Below, in pieces: positions 3,540 through 17,731 of a DNA stretch of 29,177 nucleotides. The notes under the pieces were generated by a model that had not been told where the DNA came from, made no database searches, and was given only the letters and a program-made list of their open reading frames with translations. The stretch lies in assembly GCA_036277835.1 (NCBI GenBank), contig DASUMF010000438.1, forward strand, positions 1 to 29,177. Direction: 5' to 3'. Origin of the DNA: Acidimicrobiia bacterium. GTDB taxonomy: Bacteria; Actinomycetota; Acidimicrobiia; IMCC26256; DASPTH01. The position numbers and the translations under genes were made by a program. Every line of letters starts with the position of its first letter. The stretch's first letter is position 1.

Positions 3540-4679
3540 ATGAGCGACGACGTGACCCCGTTCCAGGTCCGGTTCGACGACGCGGAGGTGCGCGACCTCC
3601 GGGACCGGTTGGCGCGCACCCGGTGGCCCGATGCGGAGGTGGTCGACGACTGGTCCCAGGGTCTGCCGCTCGCGTACGCGCAGGAGCTGTGCGCGTACTG
3701 GCGTGACCAGTACGACGTCGCGGCTGCGGAGCAGCGGCTGAACCGGTTCGCGCAGTTCCGCACCCAGGTCGACGGGCTCGGCATCCACTTCGTGCACGTC
3801 ACCTCGCCACACCCCGAGGCGCTGCCGTTGGTGCTCACGCACGGGTGGCCGGGCTCCGTGGTCGAGTTCTGGAAGGTGATCGACGAGCTCATCGACCCGA
3901 CCGCCCACGGCGGCGACGCGGCCGACGCGTTCCACGTGGTGTGCCCCTCGTTGCCCGGCTACGGCTTCAGCGACAAGCCGACCGAGCCGGGCTGGGGTGT
4001 CGAGCGCATCGCCGCGGCATGGGCTGCGCTCATGGCGAGGCTCGGGTACGACCGCTACGGCGCGCAAGGCGGCGACTGGGGCACGTTCGTGACCACCACG
4101 ATCGCCCAGCAGGACCCCGAGCACGTCGTCGGCATCCACCTGCAACTCCCCATCGCGAACCTGCTCCCCGAGATGCTCGCCGACCTCACGCCGGCCGAGA
4201 CCGCCTCGCTCGAGGCGAGCGCGGAGCACGCGACCTGGGGCACCGGGTACTCCACGCAGCAGCAGACGCGCCCGCAGACCCTCGGCTACGGGCTGGCCGA
4301 CTCACCGGCCGCGCAGTGCGCGTGGATCGTCGAGAAGTTCTGGGCCTGGACCGACAACGAAGGCCACCCGGAGGACGCGGTGTCGCGCGACGACCTCCTC
4401 GACAACGTGATGCTCTACTGGATGCCGAACAACGGCACGTCGTCGGCGCGCCTCTACTGGGAGAGCCTGCGCAACCGCGACACGAGCCCCGTGACGGTGC
4501 CGACGGGCTGCTCGGTGTTCCCGAAGGAGATCGTGCGCTTCTCGCGCCGGTGGGCCGAGACGCGCTTCACCGACATCCGCTTCTGGAACGAGCCCGACCG
4601 CGGCGGTCACTTCGCCGCGTTCGAGGAGCCCGACCTGTTCGTGGCCGACGTGCGGGCGGCCTTCCGCACGATGCGCTGA
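3540..4679 (+). CDS. Epoxide hydrolase (alpha/beta, EHN N-terminal domain), paralog 1
   Basis: L..RL.RTRWP, HGWPGS, nucleophile GGDWG, RLYWE tyrosine, FPKE acid, GGHFAAFE catalytic His. Confidence 0.92.
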   Translation: MSDDVTPFQVRFDDAEVRDLRDRLARTRWPDAEVVDDWSQGLPLAYAQELCAYWRDQYDVAAAEQRLNRFAQFRTQVDGLGIHFVHVTSPHPEALPLVLTHGWPGSVVEFWKVIDELIDPTAHGGDAADAFHVVCPSLPGYGFSDKPTEPGWGVERIAAAWAALMARLGYDRYGAQGGDWGTFVTTTIAQQDPEHVVGIHLQLPIANLLPEMLADLTPAETASLEASAEHATWGTGYSTQQQTRPQTLGYGLADSPAAQCAWIVEKFWAWTDNEGHPEDAVSRDDLLDNVMLYWMPNNGTSSARLYWESLRNRDTSPVTVPTGCSVFPKEIVRFSRRWAETRFTDIRFWNEPDRGGHFAAFEEPDLFVADVRAAFRTMR

Positions 4680-11140: not shown

Positions 11141-12043
11141 CTACGCGGTCGGCTGCTCCGGCGGCTCCGGCGGCTTCATCCCCGGAAACTCCATGCCCGG
11201 TGGGAGGCGCAGCTCACGCCACAGGTGCTCCTGGGCGATGCTCGCGACGAGGGTTCCGCTCGAGTCGTACACCGAGCCGGTGTAGTAGCCGCGCCCGCGA
11301 GCCAGGCGGACCGCAGCGAGGTCGAACAGCACCCAGTCGTCGAGGCGGACGTCGGGGTCGTGGAACCAGACGGCGTGGTCGAGGCTCGGGCCGCCCATGG
11401 GCGTGTCGCGGGTGGGCAGCTCGTAGAAGCCGGTGCCGACGTCGGAGAGGAAGGTGAGCACGCACTGGTGCACGAGCGCGTCGTCGGGGAGCGGCGCGCG
11501 CGTGCGCGCCCAGTAGCGGTTGAGGCGCCGGTTGCCGTCGGACTGGTTGGGTGCAGGCACGGTCCGGAGGTCGAACATCGGGCCGAAGCCGAAGAACTCG
11601 CCCTCGCTGAGGTCCTCGGGAAGGGGCACGTCGGGGAGCGCAGGCACCTGCAGGTCGTCGCCGGACTCGTCGACGTGGAACGACGCGAGCATGCTGAAGA
11701 TCGCGTCGCCGTTCTGGCGTGCGACCACGTGGCGCGCGCTGAACGAGCGGCCGTCGCGGTCGCGGTCGACGTGCAGGATCGTCGGGCGATCGGGGCTTCC
11801 GGGGCGCAGGAAGTAGCCGTGCAGTGAGTGGAGCATCCGACCCTCGGGTGCGGTGAGGTTCGCCGCGCGCACGGCCTGGGCCGCGACCTGCCCGCCGAAC
11901 AGCCGGAAGCGCTGCGAGTCGGCCGGGTTCGTCGCCCGGTAGAGGTCGCGATCGATCTCCTCGAGCTCGAGCAGTGCGACGAGGTGGTCGACGTCGCGAG
12001 GACTCGCCTCGGCCGGTGTGGGATGCGCGAACGCGTCGGTCAT
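11141..12043 (-). CDS. tesB: Acyl-CoA thioesterase II (double hot-dog)
   Basis: LFGGQVAAQA, HSLHGYFLRPG, ASFH, FLSD, SLDHAVWFH, IAQE motifs. Confidence 0.9.
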   Translation of the reverse strand: MTDAFAHPTPAEASPRDVDHLVALLELEEIDRDLYRATNPADSQRFRLFGGQVAAQAVRAANLTAPEGRMLHSLHGYFLRPGSPDRPTILHVDRDRDGRSFSARHVVARQNGDAIFSMLASFHVDESGDDLQVPALPDVPLPEDLSEGEFFGFGPMFDLRTVPAPNQSDGNRRLNRYWARTRAPLPDDALVHQCVLTFLSDVGTGFYELPTRDTPMGGPSLDHAVWFHDPDVRLDDWVLFDLAAVRLARGRGYYTGSVYDSSGTLVASIAQEHLWRELRLPPGMEFPGMKPPEPPEQPTA

Positions 12044-12049
12044 CGGGCG

Positions 12050-12055
12050 ATCCTA
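12050..12055 (-). promoter_or_regulatory. -10 hexamer TAGGAT, leaderless-type, for tesB
   Basis: TANNNT exactly 6 nt before ATG 12043. Confidence 0.55.
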
Positions 12056-12120
12056 CGCAGCGGCCCGCGCGGCGGGAGCCGCCGGTTGCCTCGGTCGCGT
12101 CCGGCGACTACAAGAAGGCG

Positions 12121-13230
12121 GTGATCGAAACCTTCCGCATCGACGTGCCGCAGTCCACCCTCGACGACCTGCACGAGCGCCTCGCTCGAACGCGGTTCCC
12201 GAACGAGATCGACGGGATCGGGTGGGAGCAGGGCACGCCGCTGGCCTACGAGCGCGAGCTCGTGGAGTACTGGCGTGACGGCTACGACTGGCGCGCGCAC
12301 GAGGCGCGGCTGAACTCGTTCGACAACTTCATGACGGAGGTCGACGGGCAGCACATCCACTTCCTGCACGTGCGCTCACCCCACGAGGGCGCGATGCCCT
12401 TGCTGCTCGCGCACGGATGGCCCGGCTCGGTCGTCGAGTTCCTCGACACCATCGAGGGGTTCACGAACCCGCCCGACCCCGCTGACGCGTGCTCGCTCGT
12501 GATCCCGTCGCTCCCCGGGTACGCGTTCTCGGCGCCGACGACCGAGCGCGGCTGGAACCCGCGGAAGATCGCGGAGGCGTTCGGCGCGCTGATGGCCGAG
12601 CTCGGGTACGAGCGCTACGGGGTGCAGGGCGGCGACTGGGGCTCGATGATCGTGTGCAACATGGCCGACCTCTTTCCCGACCGGGTGATCGGGCTCCACG
12701 TGAACTTCCTCACCGTGCCGCCACCGAAGGGAGAGGCGCCGCCGGAGCCGTCCGCGCCGAGTCGACGGTTCAACACGACCGGAAGCGGCTACCAGCAGAT
12801 CCAGGGCACGAAGCCGCAGACCATCGGCTACCTGCTCGACGACTCACCCGCGGGGCTCGCCGGGTGGATCGTCGAGAAGTTGCGTGAGTGGAGCGACTGC
12901 GACGGCGACGTCGAGCGTGCGTTCACCAAGGACCAGGTGCTCACGAACATCATGCTCTACTGGGTGAACACCGCCGGTGCGTCGTCGGCGCGCCTCTACT
13001 GGGAGATGCGACAGGCAGGCGCGGACGCGGTGCCGCGGGCGAAGGTCACGGTGCCGACCGGCGTCGCGAACTTCCCGGGCGAGATCGGCCGGTGCGAGCG
13101 CGTGCACGCGGAGCGTCGTTACAACATCGTCCACTGGACGGAGCACGAGCGCGGCGGCCACTTCGCGGCGATGGAGCAACCAGAGGCGTTCGTCGACGAC
13201 GTCCAGACCTTCTTCCGGTCGTTGCGCTGA
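12121..13230 (+). CDS. Epoxide hydrolase (alpha/beta, EHN domain), paralog 2
   Basis: FRIDVP...L.ERLARTRFP, HGWPGS, GGDWG, RLYWE, FPGE, GGHFAAME; start placed at GTG 12121 where family similarity begins (start uncertain). Confidence 0.9.
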   Translation: MIETFRIDVPQSTLDDLHERLARTRFPNEIDGIGWEQGTPLAYERELVEYWRDGYDWRAHEARLNSFDNFMTEVDGQHIHFLHVRSPHEGAMPLLLAHGWPGSVVEFLDTIEGFTNPPDPADACSLVIPSLPGYAFSAPTTERGWNPRKIAEAFGALMAELGYERYGVQGGDWGSMIVCNMADLFPDRVIGLHVNFLTVPPPKGEAPPEPSAPSRRFNTTGSGYQQIQGTKPQTIGYLLDDSPAGLAGWIVEKLREWSDCDGDVERAFTKDQVLTNIMLYWVNTAGASSARLYWEMRQAGADAVPRAKVTVPTGVANFPGEIGRCERVHAERRYNIVHWTEHERGGHFAAMEQPEAFVDDVQTFFRSLR

Positions 13231-13299: not shown

Positions 13300-13929
13300 T
13301 CAGGCGGTCGTGTTGTCCCAGTGGTTCCAGTACGTGATCTCTTCGATGGGACGACGGACCGCGGGCTTGAAGTCGTCGCCGGTGAAGTACGCGACGGGGA
13401 GCAGGCAGGACTGCACGTAGCCGTCGGGCACGCCGAGCAGCTCGGCCGCTTCGCGCTCGCGGTTGAGGTGCACGGTGGTGATCACGGAGCCGAGCCCACG
13501 GCTGCGCAACGCGAGGATGAAGCTCCACACCGCGGGATACATCGAGGGTTGCCACCCCGCCGCACCTCCCTTGTCCTGCGTGCACGGGATGACGTACATC
13601 GGCACCTCGTGGATGTGGTCGCGCAGGTAGAAGGCGGACTCCATCACGCGCGTTTGCTGCGGCGTCTGCTCGGGCCGTGCTTCACCGGGGCCCCGCGGCG
13701 TGGCCGGCGGGTTCTGGTACAGCTCCGCGATCGCCTGGAGCGTGTCCGGTTCGTCGATCACCAACCAGCGCCAGAGCTGCGCGTTGCTGCCGGTCGGTGC
13801 CTGCACCGCGAGGCGAAGGCACTCGAGGATCACGTCGTGGGGGACCGGGCGCGTGAAGTCGAGGCGCCGCCGCACTGCACGCGTCGTGCTCAGCAGGTGG
13901 TCGACGGTCTCGAGGTCGAGCTTCGTCAT
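13300..13929 (-). CDS. Nitroreductase-family FMN-binding protein
   Basis: LLSTTRAVRRRLDF, AVQAPTGSN.Q.WRW, FILALRSRGLGS..TT, LLPVAY; GAGAGGA RBS; ATGA overlap with the upstream Mo enzyme. Confidence 0.9.
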   Translation of the reverse strand: MTKLDLETVDHLLSTTRAVRRRLDFTRPVPHDVILECLRLAVQAPTGSNAQLWRWLVIDEPDTLQAIAELYQNPPATPRGPGEARPEQTPQQTRVMESAFYLRDHIHEVPMYVIPCTQDKGGAAGWQPSMYPAVWSFILALRSRGLGSVITTVHLNREREAAELLGVPDGYVQSCLLPVAYFTGDDFKPAVRRPIEEITYWNHWDNTTA

Positions 13930-16031
13930 CGCAGGTCCTCTCTCGCGGCGGTGATGGTGACCGGCACGGCGGTCATCCACGGCATGAGGCTGACGGGCTG
14001 TCGGTGCTCGACGAGGCTCAGCAGCCGTGCGGGGCTCGGTGCGCGGGCGTGGGTCATCGACACTACGCCGGTCCGCAGCGTGTGGTCGGCCGCCGCCACC
14101 GTCGTGATCGCGCCGTGGTCGGACGTGACGTCGACGAGGTCGCCGTCGCGCACGCCGAGCATCGCGAGGTCGTCGGGGTGGACGAAGCACGGGTTCTCGG
14201 GTTCGTCGCCGGGCGCCCGCGGCTCGAGCGAGTTCATCGCCTGCTTGCTGCGACGCACCGTGAGGAGGAACGGTCGGCGGCGACGCGTCGCGGCGGCGCC
14301 CAGGCAGTCGTCGAGCGCGACGCGCAGCTCACGAGCGACGTCGTCGGCGAGCAGCTCGAAGCGCGCGTGCGGGTCGGTCTCCTCGGCGACGGTCGGTGGG
14401 CCGACGAACGTCGGCGCGACCTCCGAGAAGATCGCGCCGTGTGGCGCGCTGCGAACCGCGTCGTAGGGCACCTGCGCGCGCGAGGCGAACGATTCGAGGA
14501 GCTCCTCAGCGGTCGGGCGCGGCGCGCCGGGCTCCCAGACCCGGTCGCCGATGTTGAGGAGCAGGCCCATCCGCGAGGACAGCTCGAAGAAGAACTCCCA
14601 ATCGTCGATCACGTCCCCCGGGCGGGGGAGGATGGCGGGGGAGTGCTGCGCGAACGGCTCGGAGAAGAAGTGCTCGTAGCCGCGCGTGTGCTCGGGTCGC
14701 TCGAACGACATGGTCGGCGCGATGACGTAGTCCGCGAGCAACGCGGTCTCGCTGGGGAACGGGTCGACGGTGACGAGCAGGTCGAGCGCACCGAGCGCTT
14801 CGACGATCCGATCCGGGTCGGGGAATGCGGCCACGGGGTTGCCGCCCGAGACGATCAGGGCGCGGACGCGTCCTGGCCCCGCGTGCAGGATCTCGTCGGG
14901 GAGCGCTGGAGAGGGGAGCTCGCCCATGAGCGGCGCCACCCCGGTGTGCCCGAGATGGTGGCCGGGCGCGCCGTGGCGGGCCGGCGGGAGCGGTTGCGCC
15001 CGGAGCGTCCGCGCCCCACTGAGCACTCCCGAGCCTGCGTAGCGGTCGCCGGCACGCGGGTAGCGACCGCACACGACGTTGAGCGATTGCACGAGGTGCT
15101 CGGCCACGTTCGCGTGCGGCCCCATGTCCGGACCGGTGCCGCTCTTCGCCATGCCCCGGCTCGCCCGTCCGAACACGCGCGCCGCTTCGACGAGCAACTC
15201 GGCGTCGAGCCCGGTGACCGAGGCCGCGACCGCAGGCGTGATCGGGTCGACGAGCGCGCGCAGCGCGTCGAGACCCTCGACCCAGCGTGCGCAGAACACC
15301 GCGTCGTGCAGGCCTTCCGCGAGGATGACGCGCAGCAGCGCCGCGAACAGCACGACGTCGGTGCCCGGCACGAGTTGCAGGTGGACATCCGCGTGCGCGG
15401 CGGTCTCGGTGTGCCGTGGGTCGACCACCACGAGCTGCAAGCCGCGCGCGCGTGCCTCCTCGAGACGGCGCAGGCCGTCGTGCACGGGAAAGCCGGTGAG
15501 ATCGCCGCCTTGCATCGACACCAGCGGGTTGGTGCCCGCGAGCAACCACACGTCGGCGTCCTCGAAGCGTTGACGGCCGCCGCCCCACGCGCCGAGTCGC
15601 GTCTCCGCAACCCACTTCGCCGACTGGTCGATCGTCATCGTCGAGTAGCGCTGGCGTGACCCCACTGCGCGCAGCCACGCGCCGGCGAAGCTGTAGGTGA
15701 GCGACGCCGTGTAGGTGTGCGTGCCGACGAACAACGCGATCGAGTCGGGGCCGTGCTCGTCGAGGATGGCGCGCAGCCGAGCCGCGATCTCGTCGATCGC
15801 GGTGTCGGTGCCGATCGGCTCGAGGCCGTCGTCACCGCGTCGCTGCGCGGTGAGGAAGCGATCGGGCGCGTGGTGCAACGCGCCGAGGTGACGCCCCTTC
15901 GTGCAGGTGAACCCGCGCGTCAGCGGGTGGTCGGGATCACCGGCGACGTGCGTGACGCGGCCGTCCTCCACGTCGACCAGCAGCCCGCACAGCGGCGAAC
16001 AGATCCGGCAGTGGGAGACGAACCGCGTCAC
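13926..16031 (-). CDS. Molybdopterin (Mo-bisPGD) oxidoreductase with N-terminal 4Fe-4S site, cytoplasmic
   Basis: CRICSPLCG..V.VEDG...V.GDPDHP...GFTC.KG, AGTNP..S, VVVDPR.TETA..AD, PGTD, SGGNP, ET...ADY, HPDD...LG..DGD.V; start placed at GTG 16031; no Tat signal. Confidence 0.9.
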   Translation of the reverse strand: MTRFVSHCRICSPLCGLLVDVEDGRVTHVAGDPDHPLTRGFTCTKGRHLGALHHAPDRFLTAQRRGDDGLEPIGTDTAIDEIAARLRAILDEHGPDSIALFVGTHTYTASLTYSFAGAWLRAVGSRQRYSTMTIDQSAKWVAETRLGAWGGGRQRFEDADVWLLAGTNPLVSMQGGDLTGFPVHDGLRRLEEARARGLQLVVVDPRHTETAAHADVHLQLVPGTDVVLFAALLRVILAEGLHDAVFCARWVEGLDALRALVDPITPAVAASVTGLDAELLVEAARVFGRASRGMAKSGTGPDMGPHANVAEHLVQSLNVVCGRYPRAGDRYAGSGVLSGARTLRAQPLPPARHGAPGHHLGHTGVAPLMGELPSPALPDEILHAGPGRVRALIVSGGNPVAAFPDPDRIVEALGALDLLVTVDPFPSETALLADYVIAPTMSFERPEHTRGYEHFFSEPFAQHSPAILPRPGDVIDDWEFFFELSSRMGLLLNIGDRVWEPGAPRPTAEELLESFASRAQVPYDAVRSAPHGAIFSEVAPTFVGPPTVAEETDPHARFELLADDVARELRVALDDCLGAAATRRRRPFLLTVRRSKQAMNSLEPRAPGDEPENPCFVHPDDLAMLGVRDGDLVDVTSDHGAITTVAAADHTLRTGVVSMTHARAPSPARLLSLVEHRQPVSLMPWMTAVPVTITAAREDLR

Positions 16032-16057: not shown

Positions 16058-16963
16058 TCAGAGGTTGCCGACGCGGAAGGGCGGGACACCCGAGTCGCGA
16101 TCGGCGAACAGCGTGGCGCGCCCGGCGTTCAGGGCGTCCAACGTCCAGATCTGATCGGACGTGATCTGCGTCACCGGCGTCCACCCCTGCACGATCTGCG
16201 CGACGCCACCGGCGATCTTCAGCACCTGCCCGCTGATGCCCTCCGCGAGCGGCGACGCCAACCACACCGCGCCCGCTGCCGGGTTGTCGGGCGACAGCAT
16301 CGGGTTCTCGGCCATCTCCTCGCCCTGGCCGACGGTGCCGAGGAGCCGGGTGGCGGCAACCGGCGCGATCGCGTTCACGCGCACGCCCGAGCGCTCGAGC
16401 TCGCGGCCGAGCACGATCGTCATCGACGCGATGCCCATCTTGGCGGCGGCGTAGTTGACCTGTCCGGCGTTGCCGTACAGCCCCGACTCCGACGACGTCA
16501 TCACGATCGCCGCGTTCGCCGGCTCGCCACTCGCCTTGGCCTTCTCGCGCCAGTAGCGACCGGCGAAGTGCGACGGCGCGAAGTGGCCCTTGAGGTGCAC
16601 GCGGATGACCGAGTCGAACTCGTCCTCGGACATGTTGAAGCTCATCTTGTCGCGCAGGATCCCCGCGTTGCAGATGAGCACGTCGAGACCGCCGAACGTC
16701 TCGATGGCCTGGTTCACCATGCCCTCGGCGCCGGCCCAGCTCGAGCAGTCGTCGTAGTTCGCGGCGGCGTCGCCGCCGGCCGCCTTGATCTCGTCGACCA
16801 CCTGCTGCGCGGGGGTCTGGTCGGCGCCCTCACCCGCGCCGGAGCCTCCGAGGTCGTTCACGACGACCTTCGCGCCCTCACTCGCCAACAGGAGGGCCTC
16901 GGAGCGCCCGATCCCGCGCCCTGCACCGGTGACGATCGCGACCTTGCCGTCGAACACGCCCAT
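16058..16963 (-). CDS. Short-chain dehydrogenase/reductase (3-hydroxyacyl-CoA dehydrogenase/FabG-like)
   Basis: TGAGRGIG, NAGILRD, TSS, NYAAAK (YxxxK), VRVNAIAP; GAGGGG RBS before ATG 16963. Confidence 0.92.
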   Translation of the reverse strand: MGVFDGKVAIVTGAGRGIGRSEALLLASEGAKVVVNDLGGSGAGEGADQTPAQQVVDEIKAAGGDAAANYDDCSSWAGAEGMVNQAIETFGGLDVLICNAGILRDKMSFNMSEDEFDSVIRVHLKGHFAPSHFAGRYWREKAKASGEPANAAIVMTSSESGLYGNAGQVNYAAAKMGIASMTIVLGRELERSGVRVNAIAPVAATRLLGTVGQGEEMAENPMLSPDNPAAGAVWLASPLAEGISGQVLKIAGGVAQIVQGWTPVTQITSDQIWTLDALNAGRATLFADRDSGVPPFRVGNL

Positions 16964-17056
16964 TTGGTCCGTCCCCTCGTCTGCGTCTGCGGCCACGACC
17001 ACGGCCTCTGAGGTCACGGAACCTAGCGAGTCGGGCGCGTTCGGGGCGAGTGGGCC

Positions 17057-17062
17057 TAGGGT
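17057..17062 (+). promoter_or_regulatory. -10 hexamer TAGGGT, leaderless-type, for the Nudix-like gene
   Basis: TANNNT exactly 6 nt before ATG 17069. Confidence 0.55.
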
Positions 17063-17068
17063 CACCCC

Positions 17069-17731
17069 ATGGTCGACAGGCCGAGGGACACGCCGGACGA
17101 CGGGCCGGTGCGGGAGCGGCTGTTCCCCGACGCGCGGGGGTTCTCGATCCGTGAGGTGCGCGAGCTCTGCGCGCACCTGCCGAAGCCGGAGCTGCGCAGG
17201 CTGCACCACGACGTCGACGAGCCGACCCTCGCAGCCACTGCGGTGCCGATCGTCGATGTCGACGGCGAAGCCGCGGTCGTGATCGTCAGGCGCTCCGCGA
17301 CCGTGGAGAACAACCCGGGCATGTGGGTCTTCCCCGTCGGGCGCGTCGATCGCACCGACGCGACGATGGCCGGTGCGGCGCTGCGGAACGCCGCGGAGCA
17401 ACTCAGCGTCCCACGGGACGACGTGGAGCTGCTGGCGCAGCTCGAGACCCACGGCCCGGTCATGAACGGCTTCCTCGTGTCGACGTTCGTGGTCGAGCCG
17501 CCCGAGGGCTTCACCTTCACGCCTCCTCGTGCACTGGTGAGCGAGCTCGCCGTGGTGCCGCTCGCACACTTCATGGCCGAGGGTCGCTTCGGTGACCGCA
17601 ACCTGCCGGACGGCGGCACGATGGCGTCGTTCGCGCTGCCCAACGGTGAGCTGCTCTGGGGGTTGCAGGCCGAGATCCTGTTGGATCTGCTCGAACGCCT
17701 GGTGCGCGACCGGGTCGATCACACGGCCTGA
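17069..17731 (+). CDS. CoA-pyrophosphatase-like Nudix-fold protein with a degenerate Nudix box
   Basis: AATAVPIV, V.RRS....NPG.WVFP.GRVD..D.....ALR, GFLV..FV, C-terminal LWG..A.IL match the CoA-pyrophosphatase layout, but the box reads RNAAEQLSV. Confidence 0.75.
   Translation: MVDRPRDTPDDGPVRERLFPDARGFSIREVRELCAHLPKPELRRLHHDVDEPTLAATAVPIVDVDGEAAVVIVRRSATVENNPGMWVFPVGRVDRTDATMAGAALRNAAEQLSVPRDDVELLAQLETHGPVMNGFLVSTFVVEPPEGFTFTPPRALVSELAVVPLAHFMAEGRFGDRNLPDGGTMASFALPNGELLWGLQAEILLDLLERLVRDRVDHTA

Follow-up and report, generated by a model that had tools for sequence, protein, structure and literature searches.

The window analysed here is the whole 29,177-nucleotide stretch of contig DASUMF010000438.1, from an Acidimicrobiia metagenome-assembled genome (MAG), with a G+C content of ~70%. 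GC content at third codon positions (GC3) marks three consecutive genes on its minus strand: a short-chain dehydrogenase (SDR) gene (16963-16058, 301 aa), a gene for a 701-aa protein (16031-13926) predicted to be a soluble molybdenum or tungsten enzyme with one [4Fe-4S] cluster, here called the molybdoenzyme, and a gene for a 209-aa flavin mononucleotide (FMN) protein of the nitroreductase fold (13929-13300), here called the nitroreductase. The SDR stop codon lies 26 nt from the GTG start of the molybdoenzyme, and the molybdoenzyme and nitroreductase genes overlap (spacing of -4 nt): on the minus strand the junction reads ...cgATGAcg..., the nitroreductase ATG and the molybdoenzyme TGA sharing positions 13929-13926, and a GAGGA is found 6 nt 5' of this ATG. 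Given the 26-nt gap and the 4-nt overlap, the three genes look like a single operon, of which the SDR gene would be the first. An earlier note on this DNA, made from the letters alone, had described the gene pair, its ATGA overlap and the cluster and ligand-region motifs treated below, and all of these were confirmed to be present at the coordinates given here.

Two gene starts had to be chosen among longer open reading frames (ORFs). For the molybdoenzyme, an ORF starting at 16265 was rejected, since both the coding signal (GC3 0.91) and the N-termini of the homologs begin at the GTG at 16031. The SDR ORF of 554 aa (16058-17722) was found to be over-extended, the true start being the ATG at 16963: the SDR N-terminal stretch MGVFDGKVAIVTGAG begins at residue 254 of the long ORF, the Pfam domain adh_short occupies its residues 260-455, and the orthologs at loci L001 (99%) and L003 (84%) cover solely the part from this ATG onwards. 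The 780 bp freed by the shorter SDR hold a plus-strand ORF (17069-17731) with a GC3 of 0.91.

The assignment of the 701-aa protein draws on Pfam, NCBIfam, homologs, an alignment-based AlphaFold2 (AF2) model and Foldseek. Its matches to Molybdop_Fe4S4 (PF04879, 53.6 bits), Molybdopterin (PF00384, 89.5 bits) and Molydop_binding (PF01568, 47 bits) are all above the cut-offs, and with its molybdopterin domains, a dinucleotide-binding domain IV and a fold matching at TM ~0.75 it belongs to the dimethyl sulfoxide (DMSO) reductase superfamily. The cluster motif announced in the earlier note as Cx2Cx3C..C reads C8-x2-C11-x3-C15-x27-C43 in the translation, followed by Lys45 (FS0 cluster motif, 15903..16010, minus strand), and these residues are kept in the family representatives wherever the residue is present (C8 in 101/101, C11 in 102/102, C15 in 103/103, C43 in 108/108 and K45 in 102/108). 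Alignments of close and of diverse homologs likewise revealed conserved cofactor-binding landmarks, namely K45, G166-x-N168-P169, D204-P-R206, P222-G-x-D225 and G396-G-N-P399, and the source genome (MAG, 72% complete) encodes MoeA. Taken at the level of sequence, these features suggest a soluble single-subunit enzyme with a predicted Mo (or W)-bis-pyranopterin-guanine-dinucleotide (bisPGD) cofactor and one [4Fe-4S] cluster, FS0.

The location of the molybdoenzyme agrees with this picture. Because the first Cys of FS0 is residue 8, there is no room for a twin-arginine translocation (Tat) leader; no ferredoxin-type Cys motif was detected in any coding frame of the window, which led us to reject a ferredoxin hidden there, and no Fer4 or membrane-anchor domain was found among the 22 window ORFs scanned. 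The claim that no Tat peptide, ferredoxin beta-subunit or membrane anchor lies nearby thus stood, and a stand-alone, cytoplasmic enzyme is supported. The unusual C-terminal SMTHARAPSP, described before as lacking the HGWG-type turn, indeed reflects a deletion of 12-13 residues in a domain IV loop (TH-A...RAPSP, 14040..14051, minus strand, from the family alignment). The deletion is lineage-specific, being found otherwise only in the closest ortholog (P0004 at L001, 83% identical), and most family members have TH[CG][YF]G..PG..DDP at this place. Other shortenings of the same loop were observed in P0018, P0038 and P0042.

The 209-aa protein is recognised as a nitroreductase by PF00881 (69.4 bits against a cut-off of 23.5) and by two FMN-type motifs, RAVRRR (RxxxR near the N-terminus) and APTGSNAQLWRW (S-x-N-x-Q-x-W), besides the clade support and synteny described below. 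It matches no defined subfamily (BluB, 43 bits against a cut-off of 150). The nearest solved structures, a bacterial iodotyrosine deiodinase (6PZ0) and a nitroreductase (4DN2), have the fold and the FMN motifs in common with it, the best match, to the deiodinase, reaching just E 1e-9.

To follow the gene pair across genomes we relied on a one-genome-per-species scan (~185,000 species), which yielded 498 confirmed matching stretches, of which 80 loci were kept for the neighbourhood analysis. A nitroreductase of at least 66% identity lies near the molybdoenzyme gene in 5/80 of these loci: immediately downstream of it in L001 and L003, upstream in L002 and L004, where an unrelated SDR gene of opposite orientation separates the pair, and 2.6 kb downstream on the other strand in L008, whose molybdoenzyme is 55% identical. 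A metagenome scan added L131 and L132, arranged as L002 and L004, L142, where the nitroreductase is upstream with a gene resembling a luciferase-like monooxygenase (LLM) in between, and L143, where it is directly upstream. Two further loci, L133 (78%) and L138 (78%), are not countable, as their contigs end on the side where the nitroreductase would be. The linked pair was therefore seen in ~9 loci, with translational coupling in 2 of these ~9. Wherever the flanks of a molybdoenzyme ortholog of at least 69% identity are readable, a nitroreductase of the same clade lies no more than 2 kb away, and at least five different arrangements occur. The nitroreductases linked to molybdoenzymes form one clade (SH-aLRT 99). 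That the nitroreductase was kept within 2 kb through at least five arrangements supports a specific functional link between the two proteins within this lineage, as judged from gene order. The SDR is not part of this conservation: an orthologous SDR-molybdoenzyme-nitroreductase trio was rejected, because the SDRs of L002, L004 and L008 are just 27-29% identical to that of the window.

Some further nitroreductase genes were noticed in the course of this analysis. At L005 (2385-3188, minus strand) and L011 (2028-3443, minus strand) a distant nitroreductase (~25% identity) lies ~3 kb upstream of a different molybdoenzyme paralog and is encoded on the opposite strand, and both MAGs also carry a close molybdoenzyme-nitroreductase pair. 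The source MAG has at least three further nitroreductase paralogs on contigs C175, C473 and C151 (L093-L095), which are too short to show pairing. Many of the Acidimicrobiia nitroreductase matches carry one in-frame stop (TGA or TAG), most likely because the match runs past the true start codon.

Considering all of the evidence, we lean towards the reading that the SDR, molybdoenzyme and nitroreductase genes form an operon encoding a soluble Mo or W enzyme of the Asp type, with the FMN protein as its most likely partner. It would sit in an island of CoA-ester catabolism in the genome of an uncultured Acidimicrobiia bacterium from soil, and an oxygenated or hydroxylatable intermediate of the surrounding pathway would react at the Asp-ligated Mo centre. 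Lys45 and FS0 would carry electrons between the Mo centre and a soluble protein encoded separately. In this lineage the FMN protein from the neighbouring gene is the most likely candidate and would connect the enzyme with NAD(P)H, and in the Rhodococcus relatives a ferredoxin-FAD reductase fusion would take its place; the adjacent SDR may handle the alcohol or ketone on one side of the reaction. The electron transfer between the FMN protein and the molybdoenzyme, the direction of the reaction and the substrate are what we infer in this scheme.

Several observations weigh against such a scheme, in addition to those on the placement of Asp135 discussed further on. The association was borne out for the close orthologs and failed in the wider family, where relatives of 59% identity or less lack a close nitroreductase, except for L008. 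When the search was made from the side of the nitroreductase, in 401 genomes (~400 Acidimicrobiia plus the source genome), 129 of them were found to hold a homolog, and only one of the best 29 nitroreductase loci adjoins a molybdoenzyme gene; two of these loci, L102 in G212 and L115 in G389, belong to genomes not yet published and enter only as cases with no molybdoenzyme, the conclusion being independent of them. Even within the linked clade, the member from G299 has no molybdoenzyme gene within 10 kb. Small molecules are the usual targets of nitroreductase-fold enzymes, in two-electron hydride chemistry; these enzymes are not known to donate electrons to Fe-S proteins, and no member of the superfamily is known to serve a molybdoenzyme. 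Furthermore, the MobA match in the source genome is weak (35 bits), and no substrate could be inferred from the 80 neighbourhoods.

Alternatively, the nitroreductase could be a separate catabolic enzyme of the same pathway, acting on a neighbouring intermediate by, for instance, an FMN-dependent reduction or a dehalogenase-like step, and the molybdoenzyme would use a general cellular ferredoxin or flavodoxin. The nitroreductase family occurs widely and in multiple copies across Acidimicrobiia, the wider molybdoenzyme family works without it, the nearest solved relatives (iodotyrosine deiodinase and nitroreductases) act on substrates, and several of the linked loci have an opposite-strand gene between the pair, coupling being confined to the two mentioned above. 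Nevertheless, co-localisation was kept through at least five rearrangements while all other neighbours changed, a pattern more typical of partners in one step, and the window encodes no other redox partner, so that we regard a separate role for the nitroreductase as possible, though rather unlikely.

The Asp-type character attributed to the molybdoenzyme depends on the segment YSTMTIDQSAK, in which the earlier note had pointed to an Asp (codon 15629-15627, minus strand) and to the lack of a Cys, Sec or obvious Ser ligand motif. The segment is present, with no Cys at or beside position 135, and Asp135, within the motif T-[ILV]-D-Q-[SP]-[AG]-K, is invariant in 41 close (A1) and 63 diverse (A2) homologs and kept in 107/109 full-length representatives of 50%-identity clusters. 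It is also found in the Rhodococcus jostii paralogs Mo2 and Mo3, which are ~30% identical to the window protein. To place this residue relative to known ligands, FdhF, NapA, NarG and DmsA of E. coli MG1655 were aligned to the family hidden Markov model with HMMER and also by MAFFT L-INS-i. With HMMER, Asp135 falls on Sec140 of FdhF and on the Cys ligand of NapA, with low posterior probabilities in the stretch, and on Asp222 of NarG (223 counting Met1) with high posterior probability, ungapped over the 44 residues to the GxN strand; the DmsA alignment was pulled 2 residues off the known Ser by a D-D match and is uninformative. A profile alignment with PDB sequences places the Sec of the F420-dependent formate dehydrogenase (FDH) on Asp135 as well. 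The spacing from the ligand to GxN is 31 in the family and in NarG and 34 in FdhF and NapA, and in the AF2 model (mean pLDDT 90.3) a strand ends at residue 130 and a helix starts at residue 137.

The idea of an Asp ligand was thus sustained by conservation and by HMMER, and contradicted by MAFFT L-INS-i, which sets Asp135 under the aspartate of the NN[VI]D motif of FdhF and NapA and V141 under Sec140. Two of the HMMER alignments, with the FdhF of HDCR and with acetylene hydratase, are also off by one residue at Asp135, and its position relative to the metal is in every case taken from sequence alignment. It could be, then, that Asp135 is the structural aspartate of NN[VI]D-x2-AR-x-[C/U], with the hydrophobic V141 at the ligand spot and Mo left without a protein ligand, as in arsenite oxidase. 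In favour of this view are the MAFFT pairing of D135-Q-S-A138-K139-W-V141 with D134-C-C-A137-R138-V-U140 of FdhF and the low HMMER posterior probabilities for FdhF and NapA. The MAFFT solution is less likely, however, because it also puts the known ligand Asp222 of NarG, the accepted structural equivalent of Sec140 of FdhH, in the NN[VI]D column, apparently drawn by D-D identity, and because it requires a deletion of 9 residues before the GxNP strand instead of the 3 in the HMMER solution, while the strand and helix limits of the AF2 model fit a ligand at 135. We therefore consider a purely structural Asp135 improbable. Asp135 quite probably occupies the ligand position, and we infer from this placement that it binds the metal.

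In the accepted classification of the DMSO reductase family by Mo ligand, type I enzymes have Cys or Sec, type II enzymes Asp and type III enzymes Ser (PMC6650914). Asp is thereby a mark of type II, and its occurrence in an enzyme of type-I-like build would be new. No NCBIfam equivalog model is reached by the 701-aa protein: the best match is Fdh-alpha (TIGR01591, 180.5 bits against a cut-off of 666), NasC gives 139.5 against 1100, a second model in the comparison with assimilatory nitrate reductases (NasC, NasA, NarB) gives 94 bits against 1000, and EbdA and NarG reach just 18 bits (cut-off 2000) and 28 bits, respectively. The nearest solved sequences are cytoplasmic FDHs, acetylene hydratase, polysulfide/thiosulfate reductase and Nap, and Foldseek with the AF2 model ranked FDH, Nap and acetylene hydratase best (TM 0.72-0.75), with ethylbenzene dehydrogenase (EBDH) and PcrA lower (0.67-0.71). 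In a quick maximum-likelihood tree with seven outgroups, the family, Mo2 and Mo3 included, forms a single clade (SH-aLRT 100), and NarG falls outside it, beside DmsA and BisC (97). The tree, the CxxCxxxC form of FS0, the small size of 701 aa, where type II enzymes exceed 850 aa, and the lack of a beta subunit together exclude type II membership, so the molybdoenzyme is not of the NarG/EbdA/PcrA/SerA type. The origin of its Asp is likely independent of type II, as far as a tree with only seven outgroups can tell.

By score and predicted fold, the family appears to be a large unnamed and uncharacterised clade, separate from the E. coli enzymes compared and closest to FDH, Nap and acetylene hydratase. 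The cytoplasmic FDHs (E. coli FdhF/FdhH, 1AA6/1FDO; FdhF of HDCR, 7QV7; F420-dependent FDH, 9T1S) give the best sequence and profile matches (150-322 bits) and resemble the molybdoenzyme in several ways: they are ~700 aa long and cytoplasmic, carry the three Pfam domains as well as a CxxCxxxC..C FS0 followed by Lys, and match its fold at TM ~0.72. They differ in having a Sec/Cys-His pair where the molybdoenzyme has Asp-Gln, in the TIGR01591 score, so far below its cut-off, and in context, formate and hydrogen metabolism for the FDHs and catabolism for the molybdoenzyme. Acetylene hydratase of Pelobacter acetylenicus (2E7Z) is the best-scoring solved chain in one near-full-length stretch (profile 5-659, 305 bits; TM 0.75) and is likewise a stand-alone soluble monomer with one [4Fe-4S] cluster and no partner subunits, but its ligand is Cys141 and its catalytic Asp13 is beside the second FS0 Cys, whereas the molybdoenzyme has D/Q at the Cys position and a variable Ser at residue 12. 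The closest precedent for the scheme favoured here comes from the assimilatory nitrate reductases, of the NasC/NasB type or the ferredoxin-dependent NarB, in which a separate soluble NAD(P)H flavoprotein or a ferredoxin supplies electrons to a soluble Mo-bisPGD enzyme with one cluster. Their ligand is Cys, and the role of partner falls to an FAD/NADH reductase or a ferredoxin, no FMN protein of the nitroreductase fold being known in it.

The family is broadly distributed. A homolog search gave 2480 matches, labelled only 'molybdopterin-dependent oxidoreductase' or 'anaerobic selenocysteine-containing dehydrogenase', the ESM Atlas offers generic names only, and scores above 278 bits are reached by more than 150 clusters at 50% identity. 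We found no published study of it in the literature on DMSO reductase phylogeny, Rhodococcus molybdopterin clusters, Rv0197 and bisPGD clades. The 80 loci come from Acidimicrobiia, Rhodococcus, Gordonia, Nocardia, Williamsia, Streptomyces, sphingomonads, Steroidobacteraceae and Burkholderiaceae, and clustering of their neighbourhoods revealed diverse contexts with no common partner; the neighbours of the family include P450, Rieske oxygenase, LLM, epoxide hydrolase, amidohydrolase_2, sulfotransferase, MMPL and TonB receptor genes. The source MAG holds at least four molybdoenzyme paralogs; contigs C111, C67 and C354 (L086-L088), again too short to show pairing with a nitroreductase, carry at least three besides the window copy. 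A second molybdopterin-enzyme gene, 25% identical, was observed shortly downstream of a family member at two Acidimicrobiia loci (L013:4482-6494 and L024:12722-14119).

In Rhodococcus, Gordonia, Nocardia and Williamsia the molybdoenzyme genes are embedded in a recurrent row consisting of enoyl-CoA hydratase, CoA-transferase III, CoA ligase, an MFS transporter, Mo1, Mo2, a fusion of Fer4 with a Pyr_redox_2 reductase, and Mo3 (L025:1-14112 in Rhodococcus jostii NBRC 16295; also L026-L048 and L139). Our literature searches retrieved no study of this cluster of three Asp-type paralogs, which is found in culturable strains. The presence of the Fer4 plus Pyr_redox_2 fusion between molybdoenzyme paralogs shows that enzymes of the clade rely on soluble redox proteins encoded separately. 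Ferredoxin-FAD reductases normally pass electrons from NAD(P)H to ferredoxins, and this habit tilts our reading of the molybdoenzyme reaction towards the reductive direction.

These observations bear on a reading that takes up the mention of ethylbenzene dehydrogenase in the earlier note, with the molybdoenzyme as a water-dependent C-H hydroxylase resembling that enzyme and the FMN protein carrying electrons away. Such a function would agree with an Asp at the ligand position and with the SDR directly upstream, as ped follows ebdABCD; an SDR directly upstream of the molybdoenzyme gene was in fact found in ~9 loci from four lineages, with SDRs that are not orthologous. Asp135 also aligns with Asp222 of NarG without gaps and with the same spacing to the GxN strand. 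However, the type II enzymes (NarG, EbdA, PcrA) are of 900-1250 aa; their FS0 is HxxxCxxxC, they work with a beta subunit holding four clusters, and many of them also have a Tat leader and a subunit that binds heme or serves as anchor. The 701-aa molybdoenzyme shows none of these features, and with its CxxCxxxC FS0, the missing beta and gamma subunits and the scores against EbdA and NarG the analogy to ethylbenzene dehydrogenase and steroid C25 dehydrogenase did not hold up. Moreover, hydrocarbon hydroxylation needs a high-potential acceptor, electron donation is what flavoproteins linked to NAD(P)H and the ferredoxin-NAD(P)H reductase fusion of Rhodococcus suggest, and many Asp-type enzymes are reductases (NarG, PcrA, SerA). 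A hydroxylase of this kind is accordingly quite unlikely. The weak MobA match and the domain IV loop deletion might raise the suspicion that the protein, like NuoG or QrcB, is a relic that has lost the cofactor and serves only in structure or through its Fe-S cluster. This is even less credible, given that the family, very diverse as it is, has kept every pterin- and guanosine-binding motif as well as the Cys and Lys of FS0, MoeA is present and the genome is just 72% complete.

With the Asp-type redox enzyme retained as the favoured reading, the clade would join a type-I-like architecture with Asp at the ligand position in more than 100 clusters at 50% identity. The Mo ligand residue also tunes the chemistry of DMSO reductase family enzymes. 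Since the clade is present in culturable aerobes, including Rhodococcus, Gordonia, Nocardia, Streptomyces, Sphingobium and Paraburkholderia, and no functional name for it was found in the sources searched, it marks a molybdenum-dependent reaction without assignment in aerobic catabolic clusters that is accessible in tractable organisms. If the FMN protein is indeed the partner, this would be a new role for the nitroreductase superfamily. It is tempting, although speculative, to go further and envisage a widespread soluble one-subunit Mo-bisPGD clade, with an Asp independent of the NarG/EBDH lineage, of which one Acidimicrobiia branch recruited a nitroreductase-fold FMN protein as its dedicated NAD(P)H-linked redox partner; if true, it would constitute a new two-component molybdoenzyme class in the aerobic catabolism of lipid-, terpenoid- or steroid-like CoA esters.

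Besides the three genes discussed, the window carries genes for a thiolase, a fused CoA-transferase, a fused acyl-CoA dehydrogenase, TesB, LLM, DUF2889 and enoyl-CoA hydratase, together with a TetR-controlled ligase operon. The domain scan also detected two epoxide hydrolase paralogs, each combining an EHN domain with an alpha/beta hydrolase, at 3540-4679 and 11974-13230 on the plus strand. The second of them is convergent on the nitroreductase and is found in the same place in L001 and L003/L099, and further epoxide hydrolase genes accompany family members at L055, L080 and L135.

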